A stretch of 36,691 bases of DNA from positions 1-36,691 of the forward strand of contig WJKT01000087.1 of NCBI GenBank assembly GCA_014728955.1, in the 5' to 3' direction. Below, piece by piece: positions 19,133-26,995 of this stretch. A model generated the notes under the pieces. That model was not told the origin of the DNA, made no database searches, and saw only the letters and a program-made list of their open reading frames with translations. This stretch comes from Candidatus Peregrinibacteria bacterium (GTDB lineage Bacteria; Patescibacteriota; Gracilibacteria; UBA1369; PNNO01). A program made the translations under genes and the position numbers. How positions within the stretch are numbered: the first letter of the stretch is position 1; each line of letters starts with the position of its first letter.

Positions 19133-19160
19133 TTGACAACAGGTTTTTGTAGCGTATCAT
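19133..19160 (+). promoter_or_regulatory. Putative promoter for initiator tRNA
   Basis: Perfect -35 TTGACA (19133-19138), 16-nt spacer, -10 TATCAT (19155-19160). The tRNA starts 20 nt downstream. Confidence 0.5.
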
Positions 19161-19179: not shown

Positions 19180-19254
19180 CGCGGGGTAGAGCAGTGGCAG
19201 CTCGTCGGGCTCATAACCCGGAGGTCGCAGGTTCGAATCCTGCCCCCGCAACCA
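19180..19254 (+). tRNA. Initiator tRNA-fMet (anticodon CAT), CCA encoded
   Basis: A 75-nt cloverleaf folded by hand. It closely parallels E. coli tRNA-fMet (CGCGGGG...GGGCTCATAACCC...CCCCGCAACCA). It shows the C1-A72 mismatch, three consecutive G-C pairs at 29-31/39-41 and an A11-T24 pair, which are the bacterial initiator hallmarks. Confidence 0.93.
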
Positions 19255-19261
19255 AAAATAC

Positions 19262-19287
19262 CACTCATTTCTAATGAGTGTTTTTTT
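19262..19287. terminator. Bidirectional Rho-independent terminator between the tRNA-fMet and pgsA-like 3' ends
   Basis: Perfect 8-bp stem CACTCATT/AATGAGTG (19262-19269 / 19273-19280) with a 3-nt loop, followed by T7 (19281-19287) on the + strand. On the - strand the same hairpin is followed by gTATTTTT. Confidence 0.6.
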
Positions 19288-20036: not shown

Positions 20037-20786
20037 ATGAATCGAAATTTTAATAAAATTATATCGCAACGCATTAAGATGGCGTTAAAAGAAGCTAATA
20101 CCTCGCAGACTGAATTAGCTCAAATGATTGAAAAATCTCGTGCTTATATTTCCAATATTACGAAAGGACGATATGTTCCCAAAGTATCGGAATTAATTAA
20201 AATTGCAGAGTATCTCAAAAAACCCGTGGGTTATTTTCTTGGTGAGGATAAACCCGGTCTTATGCATTATGTACAAAAAGCAAAAAAATGGGACAAACTC
20301 GTAAAACTTATTGAAACCGACATTCGAAAAGATTTGTCTGACGATGTAGTTGCAATCCCCATGCTTGAACATGCCAATATACGAAATAAAAGCGTACAGG
20401 AAATTATAGATTCACGAAAAAATCTTAAAAATTATATTTATCTTTCAAAGCACAATCTGCGTAAATATTACAAATACACAAAATCACTCGATGATTTATT
20501 GGGATTGCGAATATTTATAAGAGATTATCCTGAATTTGGTATTTATTTAGGTGATATTACCGTTTACGAACCTGTTTTTAATAACGATATCGGTGATGAT
20601 AGCGGAAAACTGTTTGGTATTATCTATAAAGGAGATTTATGTATTAAACGCGTCTATAAAGAAGGTAAAAAATATTACTTTGAGCCGCTTCATTCAACAC
20701 CGCAACTCAATAAGATGACAATGCACAATAAAGATCTTGTTATTGCCGGAAAGATTGTATTCTCCATTCATACAAAGCTTTTTTGA
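20037..20786 (+). CDS. XRE-family HTH regulator with a C-terminal LexA/CI-type S24-like domain lacking the catalytic serine
   Basis: N-terminal HTH_XRE (TSQTELAQMIEKSRAYISNITKGRYVPKVSELIKIAEYLKKPVGYF). The C-terminal region aligns by eye to the S24 fold: LRIFIRDYPEFGIYLGDITV versus the canonical GDSMEP..I..GD, and CIKRV versus the KR motif. The Ser position is occupied by Tyr164. Confidence 0.75.
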   Translation: MNRNFNKIISQRIKMALKEANTSQTELAQMIEKSRAYISNITKGRYVPKVSELIKIAEYLKKPVGYFLGEDKPGLMHYVQKAKKWDKLVKLIETDIRKDLSDDVVAIPMLEHANIRNKSVQEIIDSRKNLKNYIYLSKHNLRKYYKYTKSLDDLLGLRIFIRDYPEFGIYLGDITVYEPVFNNDIGDDSGKLFGIIYKGDLCIKRVYKEGKKYYFEPLHSTPQLNKMTMHNKDLVIAGKIVFSIHTKLF

Positions 20787-21950: not shown

Positions 21951-21982
21951 GGGCGCCGTTTTATAAGACGGTGCCCTTTTTT
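21951..21982 (+). terminator. Rho-independent terminator after the 20935-21906 gene
   Basis: GC-rich 9-bp stem GGGCGCCGT / ACGGTGCCC (one G-T wobble), 8-nt loop, then T6 (21977-21982). Confidence 0.7.
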
Positions 21983-21990
21983 AAAAAAGC

Positions 21991-22019
21991 TTGCACTCAC
22001 CCATGCAAAAACGTAATAT
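21991..22019 (+). promoter_or_regulatory. Putative promoter for the tRNA(CAU)-carS-like transcription unit
   Basis: -35 TTGCAC (21991-21996), exact 17-nt spacer, -10 TAATAT (22014-22019). The tRNA 5' end is at 22033. Confidence 0.55.
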
Positions 22020-22032
22020 ATTTCTCGCACGT

Positions 22033-22109
22033 GGCCGGGTAGCTCAGTTGGTTAGAGCGCGGGACTCATAAGCCCGAGGTCGTGGGTTCGATCCCCACCC
22101 CTGCCACCA
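22033..22109 (+). tRNA. tRNA with CAT anticodon (elongator tRNA-Met, or tRNA-Ile2 if C34 is lysidinylated), CCA encoded
   Basis: A 77-nt cloverleaf folded by hand (GGCCGGG-TA-GCTC...GAGC-G-CGGGA-CTCATAA-GCCCG-AGGTC-GTGGG-TTCGATC-CCCAC-CCCTGCC-A-CCA). It has regular D and T arms. Two non-Watson-Crick positions are present (C4/T69 and A31/G39). Confidence 0.85.
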
Positions 22110-22120
22110 TTTTATTGCCT

Positions 22121-22642
22121 ATGAATTACACTTTTTTAGTTTATTATTCGGTTATCTTTTTTCTTCCGGCATACGTTGCCAATGCAATGCCGGTTATTGC
22201 CAACGGTCTTAATCTGTGTCCTTCGCTTGCAAAACCAATACACGAGGAATGGTTCGGTAAATCTAAAACATATAGAGGGTTTATATTCGGGATTATAGGA
22301 GCTTTTATTATTAATATAGTGCCGCTTTCCTTTGGATTTTATGATTTTCATGAAAGCGCAACATTGATTATTTTCTTTTGGACAACTTTTACTCTAAGTA
22401 TCGGTGCACTACTTGGCGACCTTGCAAAAAGCTTTTTCAAAAGACGGGTAGGTATAAAAAGCGGCCACCCATGGCCACCGTTCGATCAATTGGACTATGT
22501 TATCGGAGCATTGCTCTTTTCATATGCAATAAACCCCCAGCCGCTTGAAGTCATTGTGACGCTGCTTATCCTCTCCCCTCTTCTCTCCCTTTTTGCAAAT
22601 GTTGCCGCGTATATTCTTCATCTAAAAAAAGTGTGGTGGTAA
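22121..22642 (+). CDS. CDP-archaeol synthase-like cytidylyltransferase (CarS/DUF46 family)
   Basis: 173 aa and 5-6 TM. FLPAYVANAMPVIANG, KPIHEEWFGKSKTYRGF, GDLAKSFFKRRVGIKSGHPWPPFDQLDYVIGALLF and the C-terminal HLKKVWW parallel the conserved blocks of archaeal CarS as I recall them (PxYxxN, GxxKTWRG, GDLxxSFxKRRxG...DQLxF, ...KEVPW). ATG 22121 is 11 nt after the tRNA 3' end. I rejected the ORF-track start at 22082 because it lies inside the tRNA. Confidence 0.8.
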   Translation: MNYTFLVYYSVIFFLPAYVANAMPVIANGLNLCPSLAKPIHEEWFGKSKTYRGFIFGIIGAFIINIVPLSFGFYDFHESATLIIFFWTTFTLSIGALLGDLAKSFFKRRVGIKSGHPWPPFDQLDYVIGALLFSYAINPQPLEVIVTLLILSPLLSLFANVAAYILHLKKVWW

Positions 22643-23251
22643 TTACTCCTCCACCGGTAACTCTTTCTCAATTGCTTTTTTGATTTTTTCGTATGGCTGC
22701 ACTCCCAGTAATTGCTGATCATTTACGAAAATCGTTGGGGTTGCGCTTACTCCTCTCTCTTTTCCTTCTTTTCGATTACGTAATACCACGTTTTTATAAC
22801 GATCGGTATCAAGACAAGTATCAAACGCCTGGACGTTCAATCCATATTCATTGGCACGTGCCGTTAAACTTTCCCGGTCAAGATTCTCCTGATCACTAAA
22901 TAAATCAATATGCATTTGCCAATATAGATTTTCATCCTGTTCACCCGCACAATAAGTGGCTTCACTCGCTTTTTGTGCATATTCGTGATTCAGCATAGGA
23001 TAATCTTTAAACACAAATCGAACTTTTCCCGTTTCTATATAATCTTTTTGCAACTCCGGCAATATCTGTAAAGCAAACATGGCGCAAAACGAAGATTCGT
23101 AATCACTATAAGCGGTAACAACAACATCGGCATTTGCGTTCCCTTTTGAATAGGTGATGTCGATATCCTGAGGGATTGATGTATTCTCCTGATTCGAGCA
23201 TCCACCCGCAATCAGTGCAAGCACACATAACAATGAGAATACTTTTCGCAT
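22643..23251 (-). CDS. DsbA/BdbD-like thioredoxin-fold lipoprotein with an S-x-x-C (not C-x-x-C) active-site motif
   Basis: Lipoprotein-type signal (LALIAGGC). It aligns by eye with the BdbD/DsbA family (VVVTAYSDYESSFCAMF versus ..EFGDYKCPSC..), with the cis-Pro loop SATPTIFVN conserved. The first active-site Cys is replaced by Ser53. Confidence 0.8.
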   Translation of the reverse strand: MRKVFSLLCVLALIAGGCSNQENTSIPQDIDITYSKGNANADVVVTAYSDYESSFCAMFALQILPELQKDYIETGKVRFVFKDYPMLNHEYAQKASEATYCAGEQDENLYWQMHIDLFSDQENLDRESLTARANEYGLNVQAFDTCLDTDRYKNVVLRNRKEGKERGVSATPTIFVNDQQLLGVQPYEKIKKAIEKELPVEE

Positions 23252-23295: not shown

Positions 23296-24483
23296 TCATT
23301 TCTTTATCAATGTCGATATCGAACGCTGTATGTCTCCATAGTTACCGCTTTTCGGTAACAAAATATATTGTCCGTTTATGGCTCGTGAAGCGTAAAGTAC
23401 ATTGTCCGTACTAATAACGTTCCCGCTCTCAATTGCATAATTCTGATATCTGCTTAAATAATGTAAAGCTTCAAATACGTCTATGTCAGTCTGCACATAC
23501 TGTTTAACCACACCGTACAAATCGATTGCTTTATCAATATCATCCAGTATATTTAATAATTTTATTTTCACCCGCAGCGCCTGAACAATCTGTTGCTGTC
23601 TTTTACTTCGATCAAAATCGCTTGTGGTTTTTCTGCTCCGGGCATACATGAGCGCCTCTTCTCCCGTCATATGATGCGATCCTTCTTCGACAACATATTC
23701 ACGGTAGCCATTATTTGCCGTTGGGAAATAAGGATCCCGAATTGTTTCGCGAACATATATATCAATACCATCGAGGATATCAATCGTTTGTTTAAATGCT
23801 TCCATATTAAAAACAACATAATGATCGAAAGTTAATCCGGTCACCATGCCAAGATCATGTTTTATTTTTTCTATCCCGTAAGCGGCATAAACGCTATTTA
23901 TTTTCCTCCCGTTAACATACAAATCACGCGGGATACTTACCAGACTTATCGTTTTGTTTTCAGGATTGATAGCGGCAATAATAATAGTATCGGTTAACAA
24001 ATCATGCTCACCAAGAATTAAAACCGTCACTATTTCGTCCGGCTGGTTTGGGATTGAAGCTTCTTGTACAAGCGCGTTGTTTTTTTGTTGCAGCTCATGA
24101 AGCGATTGCTCTTTTTCAGACAAAGTATCCATTAATGAACGTTTTACCTGCGCAAACTGATTGCGCAACGCTTCTTGCTTTTCTTGATCATTTGCAATAG
24201 TTCCCAGAAAAGCTTCTTCAAATCCCGCCAAGGTTTCATGAACAATTCCTCTGTTTTCCACTATATGTTGATAGAGATAATAATTTTCTTCCTTTAGCTG
24301 ACCGATTTCTTCAGCCATAGAATGCAATTGTATATCTTTGTCCCTCACCTGATCGTGGATTGTTCGCATACCCATCCCCAAGCCAACAACGCCGATAACT
24401 AAAGCGACCATTAATCCAGCAACCAAGATGCGAATATTCCTAATGGTGTCCTTATATTGTTCGTGATTTTCAGGCATTTGCAT
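23296..24483 (-). CDS. LytR-CpsA-Psr (LCP) family cell-envelope glycopolymer transferase with an N-terminal TM anchor and coiled coil
   Basis: TM helix ILVAGLMVALVIGVVGLGMG and a coiled-coil region. LCP core: VLILGEHDLLTDTIIIAAINPENKTISLVSIPRDLYV, FDHYVVFNMEAFKQTIDILDGIDIYV, EEALMYARSRKTTSDFDRSKRQQQIV. I prefer start 24483 (or 24477), which overlaps the upstream stop by 8-14 nt. The ORF-track start is 24543. Confidence 0.85.
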   Translation of the reverse strand: MQMPENHEQYKDTIRNIRILVAGLMVALVIGVVGLGMGMRTIHDQVRDKDIQLHSMAEEIGQLKEENYYLYQHIVENRGIVHETLAGFEEAFLGTIANDQEKQEALRNQFAQVKRSLMDTLSEKEQSLHELQQKNNALVQEASIPNQPDEIVTVLILGEHDLLTDTIIIAAINPENKTISLVSIPRDLYVNGRKINSVYAAYGIEKIKHDLGMVTGLTFDHYVVFNMEAFKQTIDILDGIDIYVRETIRDPYFPTANNGYREYVVEEGSHHMTGEEALMYARSRKTTSDFDRSKRQQQIVQALRVKIKLLNILDDIDKAIDLYGVVKQYVQTDIDVFEALHYLSRYQNYAIESGNVISTDNVLYASRAINGQYILLPKSGNYGDIQRSISTLIKK

Positions 24484-26995
24484 TAAGGTCAATACCAATA
24501 CGGGCCGATATCTCTTGATCAACAAATTCACGTTTTCGGCCATACTTCATGCTTGAATATTGTTTTACAATTTCAGCAACTTTTTTATTTTGTTTTGATG
24601 TGTCCCAGATAGTTTCAAGTGAAAACGGTCTTGAGGTGGTGTTATTAATATTCAATTTTATATATGCTTTATAATTGGCAATACCAAGAACATCGGCTTC
24701 CGTAAGTACCGGTGCATACTCTTTTGCCATGTACTGAGCATCGTCCGCACCCACTTTAAAGGACATCATCGTTCCCACGTTACCAAAAACCGCATCTCTT
24801 ATGGACGTATCCTGTTTCTTTTCGAGCTGCTTAATATATTGATGCGCCATAATTAAGGCAAGACGATATTTACGCGCCTCGGATAGAATCGAACAGAAAC
24901 TGTCCGTAGCAAAATTCTGGAACTCATCCACATATAGATAAAAATCTTTACGTTGATCTTCCGGCATATCCGCCCTACTCATTGCCGCCATCTGAATCCG
25001 AGCCACAACAACCAGTCCCAGCAGCTGCGTATTAAGATCTCCTATTTTACCTTTGGAAAGATTAATTAATAAAATTTTACCCGTATCCATCACTTCCCTA
25101 AAATTAAACGCTGATTTTGTTTGTCCGATAGTATTACGCATAATGGAGTTGGTAATAAACGGCCCAAACTTTGATGAAAAATACGGAATCATTTCCTGAC
25201 GTTCACGTTCACCCGTATGCGCATATTCATGTTCCCAGAATGATCGAACAACCGGATTACGCACTTTGGCAACTTTATATTTCATGAAATCGTTGTCGAC
25301 AAAAATACGAGGCACATCGATAAGCGTTGCGCCTTCTTCTTTGTCTTCCATTAAGGTTAAACATGCATTTCTAAAATAGTGCTGAATCCGCGGTCCAAAA
25401 ATCTCATCACCAAACAGTTTAATAAAAATTTCCGTTGCCTGGCTGGATGCAAGATCCTGCTCTTCCGCCGTTTTTGCTTCAAGGATATTCAATCCCATTG
25501 GCCGTTCCTGATCTGCCGGATTAAAGACAATAACATCTTTTGCTCGCTCTTTCGGTACATAGGTCAACACATCTTCAACCAAATCACCATGAGGATCAAC
25601 AACACACACCCCTTCTCCATTCCAAATATCCTGACGCGCCATAAAACTGATGAATGCCGATTTACCTGCACCCGACTTTCCTATGATGTATTGATGTCTT
25701 GTCCGATCATCCTTCATAATGCGTACTTTTCGTTTTACTCCACGATAAACATTGTCACCGAGATAAACACCTTCTTCGGGAAGATCAACCGGTGCCGGCA
25801 CCACTTTATATTTTAACCATCGAATGGTTGGCGTGTAATTATATCTGCTGCTCGGGAAATGAAACATTCCCGCCAATTCTTCGGGAACAAGCAGTGAGCT
25901 TTTTTCCCAAATAAATGGAATAAGTCTAAATGCCTGCAATCTATGCTTAAATGTATGCATCAACAGCTTATCGTTGATTGAATCTATCATAATCATACGC
26001 CGTGTCTGGAACCAGTTTGCCGCAGCGCTTTTAAAGAGATTTAACGCCAAGATCATATTGTTTGCAATATCATAGGCTCGTTTTTCCGTAGGAGAGGTTG
26101 CAACAATACGAACAATCGTATCGAACCCAACCTGGTTTGCCTTTTCACCGATTTGCTTGGCAACCTCCTCTTTAGTTTGCAGCATACGAACGTACTGACT
26201 TCCTTCGGGGGCACCCGTATTAATATCTTTTTTTACTTTATCATAGCCAAAGATTAATGCTTTGAAAGCGGTAAAAATCCATCCCAAAACAGGGATTTTC
26301 GCAAGAGCTCCTTTATCGCCTTTCCCCAAGAACAATTTTGTACCCACCCGTTCAGCTTTTTTTCTCCATCTATCCGATCGCGGACTTACTACAAACTGAA
26401 AGACTGCTCTATCATGATCCTCAAGTTTTGATAAAACATTCGTTAAATCGTTGAGCGGATCATTCTCTATTTTCTTATAGGTCTTGATAGGATATGCATG
26501 GCCACGAGCCAGATACGCATAGTGTGAACGAATTTTATGTCCTTGTGGTAATACTTCATAGGGTTTTGTAAATTGAATATCGGCATTCGGATAGTACGCG
26601 GTAATTTGCTTCTCAATAAGATCTTTAAAGTGCGGATACGTTACGACATAAAAATCAACCTGCTTATTCATAGCAACCATTTCAAAAGAAACTACGTCCA
26701 GATTGAAAATCAGATTACGAATTCGGTATCCGAGCGAAAGTTCACGTATTTCATGAATATTACGATAAAACTGATCCATGACGCCGATTTTTTCACGAAA
26801 ATCTTTTTCGACCTGCTTTTCTTTATCTTTTTGAGTATCGGCACGTGGCATGGTAACCCGCATATAGATAAGCTTTTTTGTTCTTCGAAGTGCTACTAAA
26901 TAGCGAAATAATGCAAGCACATACTTAAAACCAAACCAGCCAATAATAATGGCTATTGCCCACCATACAACGTTCTTTAACAATTCCTCCCACAT
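24470..26995 (-). CDS. TraD/VirD4/HerA-like P-loop NTPase (type IV coupling-protein-like) with an N-terminal membrane anchor
   Basis: 841 aa with an N-terminal TM helix (VVWWAIAIIIGWFGFKYVLALF). Walker A is IIGKSGAGKSAF followed by VVDPHGDL. Walker B/TraG-D_C-like is FYLYVDEFQNFATDSF...ARKYRLALIMAHQY. No other T4SS component is present in the window. Confidence 0.85.
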   Translation of the reverse strand: MWEELLKNVVWWAIAIIIGWFGFKYVLALFRYLVALRRTKKLIYMRVTMPRADTQKDKEKQVEKDFREKIGVMDQFYRNIHEIRELSLGYRIRNLIFNLDVVSFEMVAMNKQVDFYVVTYPHFKDLIEKQITAYYPNADIQFTKPYEVLPQGHKIRSHYAYLARGHAYPIKTYKKIENDPLNDLTNVLSKLEDHDRAVFQFVVSPRSDRWRKKAERVGTKLFLGKGDKGALAKIPVLGWIFTAFKALIFGYDKVKKDINTGAPEGSQYVRMLQTKEEVAKQIGEKANQVGFDTIVRIVATSPTEKRAYDIANNMILALNLFKSAAANWFQTRRMIMIDSINDKLLMHTFKHRLQAFRLIPFIWEKSSLLVPEELAGMFHFPSSRYNYTPTIRWLKYKVVPAPVDLPEEGVYLGDNVYRGVKRKVRIMKDDRTRHQYIIGKSGAGKSAFISFMARQDIWNGEGVCVVDPHGDLVEDVLTYVPKERAKDVIVFNPADQERPMGLNILEAKTAEEQDLASSQATEIFIKLFGDEIFGPRIQHYFRNACLTLMEDKEEGATLIDVPRIFVDNDFMKYKVAKVRNPVVRSFWEHEYAHTGERERQEMIPYFSSKFGPFITNSIMRNTIGQTKSAFNFREVMDTGKILLINLSKGKIGDLNTQLLGLVVVARIQMAAMSRADMPEDQRKDFYLYVDEFQNFATDSFCSILSEARKYRLALIMAHQYIKQLEKKQDTSIRDAVFGNVGTMMSFKVGADDAQYMAKEYAPVLTEADVLGIANYKAYIKLNINNTTSRPFSLETIWDTSKQNKKVAEIVKQYSSMKYGRKREFVDQEISARIGIDLNANA

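Follow-up and report, generated by a model that had tools for sequence, protein, structure and literature searches.

How candidate phyla radiation (CPR) bacteria build their membranes is an open question, no CPR bacterium being known with a complete lipid pathway, and the locus analysed here poses it in a narrow and directly testable form: which lipid phosphate is activated by the CarS-type enzymes that these bacteria encode? The locus, one more instance of such a gene, lies on a stretch of 36,691 nt (36.7 kb; hereafter the window) from a Candidatus Peregrinibacteria bacterium (contig WJKT01000087.1, assembly GCA_014728955.1), in which a tRNA(CAU) gene is followed, after a spacer of 11 nt, by the ATG of an open reading frame for a CarS-family protein of 173 aa. 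We suggest, with a probability of about 60 %, that this protein substitutes for CdsA, making CDP-diacylglycerol from salvaged or rebuilt phosphatidate and supplying it to a PgsA-like transferase encoded nearby, an estimate that covers both the substrate and the replacement of CdsA. A preliminary description made from the sequence alone had recorded the tRNA, the spacer, the start codon, the length of the protein and three conserved blocks, all of which we find as described, and had read them as an archaeal-type CDP-archaeol synthase gene in a bacterial context, fused transcriptionally to the tRNA; taken as a whole, that interpretation is partly supported by the analyses presented below.

The assignment to CarS rather than to CdsA, which had been made from the conserved blocks, is borne out by comparison with hidden Markov models. 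The protein matches PF01864 (CarS-like) over its full length, residues 6–173 aligning with profile positions 4–175 at 125.8 bits against a cut-off of 22 (E = 2.4e-36), whereas PF01148 (CdsA) is matched in part, at 35.1 bits over 63 positions (residues 48–113 on profile positions 169–231 of 264). The equivalog model for CDP-2,3-bis-(O-geranylgeranyl)-sn-glycerol synthase, NF003114, is reached at 149.3 bits with a cut-off of 148, a margin of 1.3 bits; the CdsA equivalog NF008635, with its cut-off of 385 bits, gives 27.2 bits, and the protein is on that account no CdsA orthologue. Searching the sequences of solved structures returned a single related entry, CarS of Aeropyrum pernix (ApCarS, 5GUF; E = 6.6e-21). 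In agreement, an AlphaFold2 model built on a 39-sequence alignment (pLDDT 94, pTM 0.89) consists of five long helices, and a Foldseek search with it places 5GUF first (template modelling (TM) scores 0.71/0.77, root-mean-square deviation 2.1 Å) and CdsA of Thermotoga maritima second (TM score about 0.5).

The blocks PAYVANAMPV, KSKTYRGF and GDLAKSFFKRRVG...FDQLDYV belong to a conserved core that is kept throughout. Residues N21, P39, G46, K49, G53, G99, D100, K107, R108, G115, D122 and Q123 are invariant across the 39 sequences and present here, and D125, N160 and K169 are likewise retained (residue roles were taken from the review PMC9385802 and from conservation). The gene is under purifying selection, with dN/dS values of 0.10–0.12 (0.12 against the closest syntenic relative), and its GC content of 39.5 % compares with 38.2 % for the window. 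Judged by its sequence, the open reading frame is thus a real, intact and resident CarS-family gene.

With the archaeal enzymes (ApCarS 5GUF and AfCarS of Archaeoglobus fulgidus; PF01864, NF003114, EC 2.7.7.67) the protein shares the full-length Pfam family, the predicted five-helix fold and the invariant core: PAxxAN, G..KT, GD...SFxKRR..G and DQxD, the asparagine of helix α5 and the C-terminal lysine. It departs from them in a set of clade signatures (R for E after KT, W118 for A, F121 for L and a KKVWW tail), in belonging to a lineage without the histidine of helix α5, in its separate, bacteria-dominated clade and in a bacterial context whose partners are PgsA-like, PgpA and phospholipase D (PLD)-type proteins. 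With CdsA (TmCdsA 4Q2E/4Q2G; PF01148, PRK11624) it has in common the superfamily, the catalytic signature region and, in our proposal, the position in the pathway upstream of a PgsA-like transferase, but it is about 100 residues shorter and has five helices, CdsA having nine.

To call the gene archaeal-type in a bacterial context was right as to the CarS family and overstated beyond it, considering that the phylogeny gives a populous clade dominated by bacteria, that the GC content is native and that such genes already carry the name in the databases. Two trees were computed, the first from 283 sequences gathered with three queries (the window protein, ApCarS and a Woesearchaeota protein), the second from 80 sequences with 200 bootstrap trees. 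In the 80-sequence tree a clade of 55 sequences, with support of 100/96, contains the window protein and all 19 sequences that have a bacterial name or context; A. pernix CarS stands outside it, together with 15 further named sequences from archaea, including those of Thermoproteota, Methanobacteriota and Aenigmarchaeota. The 283-sequence tree agrees in separating a CPR-type clade from classical archaeal CarS, and in none of the 200 bootstrap trees do the archaeal sequences form one group. CarS sequences that carry the name Peregrinibacteria belong to a subclade other than that of the window protein.

Within the 55-member clade, two named Woesearchaeota sequences nest deeply (P0254, P0242; L001:2519–3863), at support values of 100/96, then 96/97 and 99/96, and this nesting suggests transfer between domains, from CPR to DPANN or the reverse. 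On the evidence of the trees, the CarS encoded here is archaeal-type at the level of the family only, its branch being a populous CPR-type one that has apparently exchanged genes with DPANN. The branch is well represented: a word-based search returned 414 homologues, many of which the Prokaryotic Genome Annotation Pipeline (PGAP) or IMG already lists as CDP-archaeol synthase or under the systematic equivalent, and an exhaustive search of representatives at 50 % identity gave 1365 matches at E ≤ 1e-3 and 712 at E ≤ 1e-10. The named homologues come from metagenome-assembled genomes (MAGs) of Patescibacteria, Peregrinibacteria, Pacebacteria and Buchananbacteria, relatives bearing labels such as ‘Patescibacteria group bacterium’, and a scan of genome contigs yielded one Woesearchaeota locus and one spurious match of 14 residues in an Actinomycetota contig, and nothing else. 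The gene is consequently a further member of a known, database-named bacterial CarS branch, of which the literature that we found holds no assayed member; no paper on CarS-family genes in the CPR was found in that search either, and Coleman 2019 does not treat CarS.

What these genes stand next to bears on what they may do. The surroundings in the window are bacterial, as had been stated (EF-Ts, Mur ligase, DivIC, sigma-70, LytR, QueA and a type-IV coupling ATPase), and we compared them with seven syntenic loci (L003, L004, L005 and L007–L010), in which the identity of CarS to the window protein runs from 79 % down to 48 %. A common order is conserved, beginning with the Mur ligase, DivIC, tRNA-fMet, the PgsA-like transferase on the minus strand and an XRE-type regulator, and continuing with tRNA(CAU), the CarS-like gene, a convergent DsbA-like gene, LytR and the coupling ATPase. 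The PgsA-like transferase, of 176 aa, scores 98.9 bits with the pgsA model TIGR00560, under its cut-off of 109.1, finds its closest solved structure in PgsA of Staphylococcus aureus (7DRJ, E = 1.6e-12) and is present in 7/7 loci of sufficient length. The preliminary description had assigned a role to two neighbouring CDP-alcohol phosphatidyltransferases; of the two, the 176-aa protein is the conserved neighbour, and the other, of 324 aa, is missing from most relatives or decayed in them.

A more compact arrangement is found in a Patescibacteria MAG (L014:2007–4686), where MEK9182503.1 is a fusion of phosphatidylglycerophosphatase A (PgpA) to CarS, encoded 4 nt after a CDP-alcohol phosphatidyltransferase gene and convergent with a gene for a two-domain, PLD-type protein resembling cardiolipin synthase. 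Its CarS part belongs to the same CPR-type clade as the window protein and, like it, adjoins a CDP-alcohol phosphatidyltransferase; unlike it, it is fused to PgpA, faces a PLD-type synthase and has no tRNA. A fusion of a PAP2 phosphatase to CarS was also found among the long matches (fusion proteins P0289, P0408), and in the Woesearchaeota locus a CDP-alcohol phosphatidyltransferase gene lies directly upstream of CarS. As read from their sequences, these fusions and neighbours make up a full head-group module of the phosphatidylglycerol/cardiolipin type around CPR-type CarS, and both the PgsA-like neighbour and the PgpA::CarS module link the enzyme, by association only, with the position that CdsA holds in its pathway.

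Starting from what is directly observed (family, fold, conserved core, purifying selection, clade membership, synteny and an upstream promoter), we propose the following course of events. Transcription of CarS would start at the promoter that serves tRNA(CAU) upstream of it; endonucleolytic processing of the tRNA 3′ end would then free the CarS mRNA, as in other tRNA-led operons, and its translation would begin without a Shine–Dalgarno sequence, as it does with almost every gene in this genome. The enzyme would move CMP from CTP onto a membrane lipid phosphate, most likely diacyl phosphatidate that has been salvaged or rebuilt from host-derived lipid, and the CDP-diacylglycerol formed would feed the neighbouring PgsA-like transferase for attachment of a head group in a pathway of the phosphatidylglycerol type. 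A CdsA-like role is fitting because CPR bacteria combine incomplete lipid synthesis with regular, fatty-acid-based membranes (PMC7242380).

The transcriptional part of this proposal is the firmer one. The order tRNA(CAU) then CarS, on the same strand, is found in 8/8 syntenic loci (the window included), with spacers between tRNA and ATG of 11, 11, 41, 54, 37, 7, 43 and 52 nt. The preliminary description had also placed a promoter-like element upstream of the tRNA and had seen no terminator separating that tRNA from CarS; both can be read in the sequence, and in all seven relatives, as in the window, an equivalent element, TTGnnn followed after 16–17 nt by TA(A/G)AAT, precedes the tRNA by 13–22 nt. 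The element of the window was not listed by the consensus scan, since its –35 hexamer matches 3/6 positions. A terminator scan of the window lists no terminator-like site between tRNA(CAU) and ATG 22121. Considering the 8/8 adjacency, the conserved upstream promoter, the lack of an intervening terminator and spacers of 7–11 nt that are too short to hold a promoter, tRNA(CAU) and CarS are likely co-transcribed, as far as sequence can tell.

The contrary view, that the adjacency reflects nothing but the packing of a compact genome, with a weak promoter of its own, in the tRNA or the spacer, driving CarS while the transcript of the tRNA is ended or processed independently, can point to a spacer length that is not conserved (7–54 nt), to small hairpins in the spacers of some relatives and to the fact that no tRNA stands beside CarS in three loci of other CPR clades. 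It can point as well to a search of sequencing runs with the locus, in which every match was a DNA metagenome sharing no more than 0.13 of the words, likely those of the conserved tRNA part, and no RNA run contained the locus. We nevertheless consider independent transcription unlikely, given that the 7- and 11-nt spacers leave no room for a promoter, that inspection by eye found nothing in the tRNA sequence resembling a –10 hexamer with the T it needs, that the adjacency persists in 8/8 loci although the gene upstream of the tRNA varies, and that no terminator follows tRNA(CAU), whereas tRNA-fMet, 2.8 kb further upstream with a promoter of its own, has one.

Protein operons led by tRNAs are known from Escherichia coli, thrU-tyrU-glyT-thrT-tufB being one of them. 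In another, metY is the leading gene, ahead of rimP-nusA-infB, and RNases excise it (PMC6511841). The arrangement here resembles these in that the tRNA would be the first cistron behind the promoter and the protein gene would be transcribed through it; it differs in that the downstream gene encodes a lipid enzyme and no translation factor, and in a spacer that shrinks to 7–11 nt. The absence of a Shine–Dalgarno sequence and the nearly leaderless mRNA, to which the preliminary description had drawn attention, are not special to CarS: 28/29 major open reading frames of the window lack a Shine–Dalgarno-like motif within 25 nt upstream of the start (1/29 has one), and the spacers of the relatives extend to 54 nt. 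Apparently this genome initiates translation without Shine–Dalgarno pairing, if the window is representative of it.

Several observations weigh against the role in CDP-diacylglycerol synthesis that we propose. The characterized archaeal CarS enzymes strongly prefer unsaturated archaetidic acid (2,3-di-O-geranylgeranylglyceryl phosphate, DGGGP) over phosphatidate, and a cdsA mutant of E. coli is not rescued by AfCarS (review PMC9385802); for the CPR-type clade itself, our literature search found no enzyme assay of any member. In the three CPR loci of other subclades mentioned above, the CarS-like gene lies among unrelated housekeeping genes. Moreover, a residue of helix α5 that is otherwise nearly constant has been replaced in the lineage of the window protein. 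At position 156, the equivalent of ApCarS H157, the window protein has Ser (codon 22586–22588); the column holds His in 119/119 classical archaeal CarS sequences and in 112/130 other CPR-type sequences, and within the 33-member clade of the window protein it holds Ser in 23, Ala in 9, Glu in 1 and His in none. In ApCarS, helix α5 separates two lipid-binding grooves (review PMC9385802), and the change from His to Ser or Ala may for this reason bear on lipid selectivity. Purifying selection is maintained despite the loss. With His naturally exchanged for Ser or Ala on the helix of the lipid grooves, this lineage offers a specificity variant ready to hand, and its chemistry or selectivity may differ from that of other CarS enzymes.

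The replaced histidine, present in all classical CarS sequences and lost in the clade of the window protein, also lends itself to a different explanation, namely that a canonical CdsA is encoded elsewhere in the genome and that the protein acts on another lipid phosphate or a polyprenol, for instance as a CTP-dependent polyprenol or diacylglycerol kinase-like enzyme or one that activates polyprenyl phosphate. The CTP-transferase superfamily does include dolichol and phytol kinases, and the non-lipid gene context in other CPR lineages is in keeping with such an activity. However, the cytidylyltransferase core GD...SFxKRR...DQxD is fully retained, PgpA is fused to CarS within a phosphatidylglycerol/cardiolipin module, and the linkage to a PgsA-like transferase is conserved, which speaks against another substrate because that transferase needs a CDP-lipid donor. 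We regard this explanation as decidedly unlikely.

Still less probable, in our estimation, is a true CDP-archaeol-type synthase, working on isoprenoid lipid phosphates with ether or ester linkages that are either the cell’s own or obtained from archaeal neighbours and giving archaeal-like or mixed lipids. Such a function would agree with the NF003114 cut-off being passed, with ApCarS as the nearest solved structure, with the presence of Woesearchaeota enzymes in the same clade and with the mevalonate pathway of unknown purpose reported for related Peribacteria, which lack fatty-acid synthesis (PMC4736985). Yet the protein lies outside the classical archaeal CarS clade and exceeds the NF003114 cut-off by the 1.3 bits given above; neither the window nor the syntenic loci contain a gene for GGGPS, DGGGPS or glycerol-1-phosphate dehydrogenase; the fusions and neighbours are of the bacterial phosphatidylglycerol-pathway type (PgpA, PgsA-like, PLD); and the lipids attributed to CPR bacteria are built on fatty acids (PMC7242380). 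A bolder version, touching on the divide between archaeal and bacterial lipids, would have the lineage without the α5 histidine activate isoprenoid lipid phosphates supplied by a mevalonate pathway of the Peribacteria type or by archaeal neighbours, so as to carry mixed head-grouped lipids, with the nested Woesearchaeota sequences as the sign of a salvage tool shared by CPR and DPANN; it is an equally long shot. A recent import of the gene from archaea is rejected by its native GC content, its deeply conserved synteny and its clade placement.

Should CarS indeed stand in for CdsA, as we favour, CPR membrane building would acquire a concrete handle, one small enzyme that can be assayed on phosphatidate versus archaetidic acid. 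PF01864 would then be no marker of archaeal ether lipids, a point of consequence for the reading of metagenomes because ‘CDP-2,3-bis-(O-geranylgeranyl)-sn-glycerol synthase’ is the name that PGAP currently gives to these bacterial genes. To the known branch the present locus adds a conserved tRNA-led unit, a lineage with His changed to Ser or Ala in helix α5, and the retention of one of two neighbouring transferases. The features on which the analysis draws are collected in Table 1.

Table 1. Features of the tRNA(CAU)–CarS locus and its surroundings (positions in the window)
Feature	Position	Strand	Remarks
tRNA-fMet control elements	19133–19160 (strong promoter, + strand); 19262–19280 (bidirectional terminator)		Internal contrast to tRNA(CAU)
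Initiator-type tRNA-fMet	19180–19254	+	C1xA72 mismatch and three anticodon-stem G–C pairs
PgsA-like CDP-alcohol phosphatidyltransferase, 176 aa	19286–19816	–	PF01066, 106.7 bits
XRE-type helix–turn–helix protein	20037–20786	+	Between transferase and tRNA–CarS unit; weak S24 peptidase signal in relatives
Second CDP-alcohol phosphatidyltransferase, 324 aa	20932–21906	+	PF01066, 87.5 bits; variable member
Terminator-like hairpin (11 pairs) and T-run	21951–21976	+	Closes upstream transferase gene, insulates tRNA–CarS unit
Promoter-like element TTGCAC, 17-nt spacer, TAATAT	21991–22019	+	Ends 13 nt before tRNA 5′ end; read by eye
tRNA(CAU), CCA encoded	22033–22109	+	ARAGORN; non-initiator, G1–C72 paired
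Spacer TTTTATTGCCT, 11 nt	22110–22120	+	No terminator, no Shine–Dalgarno sequence, too short for a promoter
CarS-family open reading frame, 173 aa	22121–22642	+	ATG 22121, stop 22640–22642; predicted CTP:lipid-phosphate cytidylyltransferase
DsbA-like thioredoxin-fold gene, convergent	22643–23251	–	Stop abuts CarS stop

According to ARAGORN, the window has two tRNA(CAT) genes. The one that precedes CarS is of the elongator type, either Met or lysidine-modified Ile2, on account of its G1–C72 pair. An A31–G39 mismatch at the base of its anticodon stem occurs in 8/8 loci (the window and L003–L010), and its acceptor stem has a C4–U69 mismatch in the window and in L003, the other relatives having A4–U69. 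The reading frame of CarS can be extended upstream to 186 aa from an in-frame GTG at 22082; we rejected this start, which lies inside the tRNA gene, and consider it an artefact because the homologues begin at the Met equivalent to 22121. In a relative, one public gene call (P0003) begins at the false GTG start within the tRNA, and with calls of this type some database entries carry an N-terminal extension of 13 residues translated from the tRNA.

The XRE-type protein is kept in all seven long syntenic loci and for that reason appears to be a resident regulator, and no prophage remnant. The 324-aa transferase, by comparison, is shared by the window with L004 and L010; L005, L007, L008 and L009 lack it, and it is a pseudogene in the closest syntenic relative, L003 (L003:7160–7880), where deletions of 141, 93 and 30 nt are joined by a 1-nt deletion that shifts the frame; the 141-nt deletion takes out the catalytic D-x2-DG-x2-AR block, and CarS and the first transferase are intact in that locus. 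At the other end of the unit, the stop codons of CarS and of the DsbA-like gene are separated by 0 nt in the window (22640–22645) and by 0–9 nt in the relatives. Since the stops abut and a terminator cannot fit in behind CarS, the two convergent transcripts must overlap or terminate within one another. Further downstream, beside LytR and the DsbA-like gene, all syntenic loci carry a protein with DUF8128 and a TraG/VirD4-type coupling ATPase, which in the window measures 841 aa (24470–26995).

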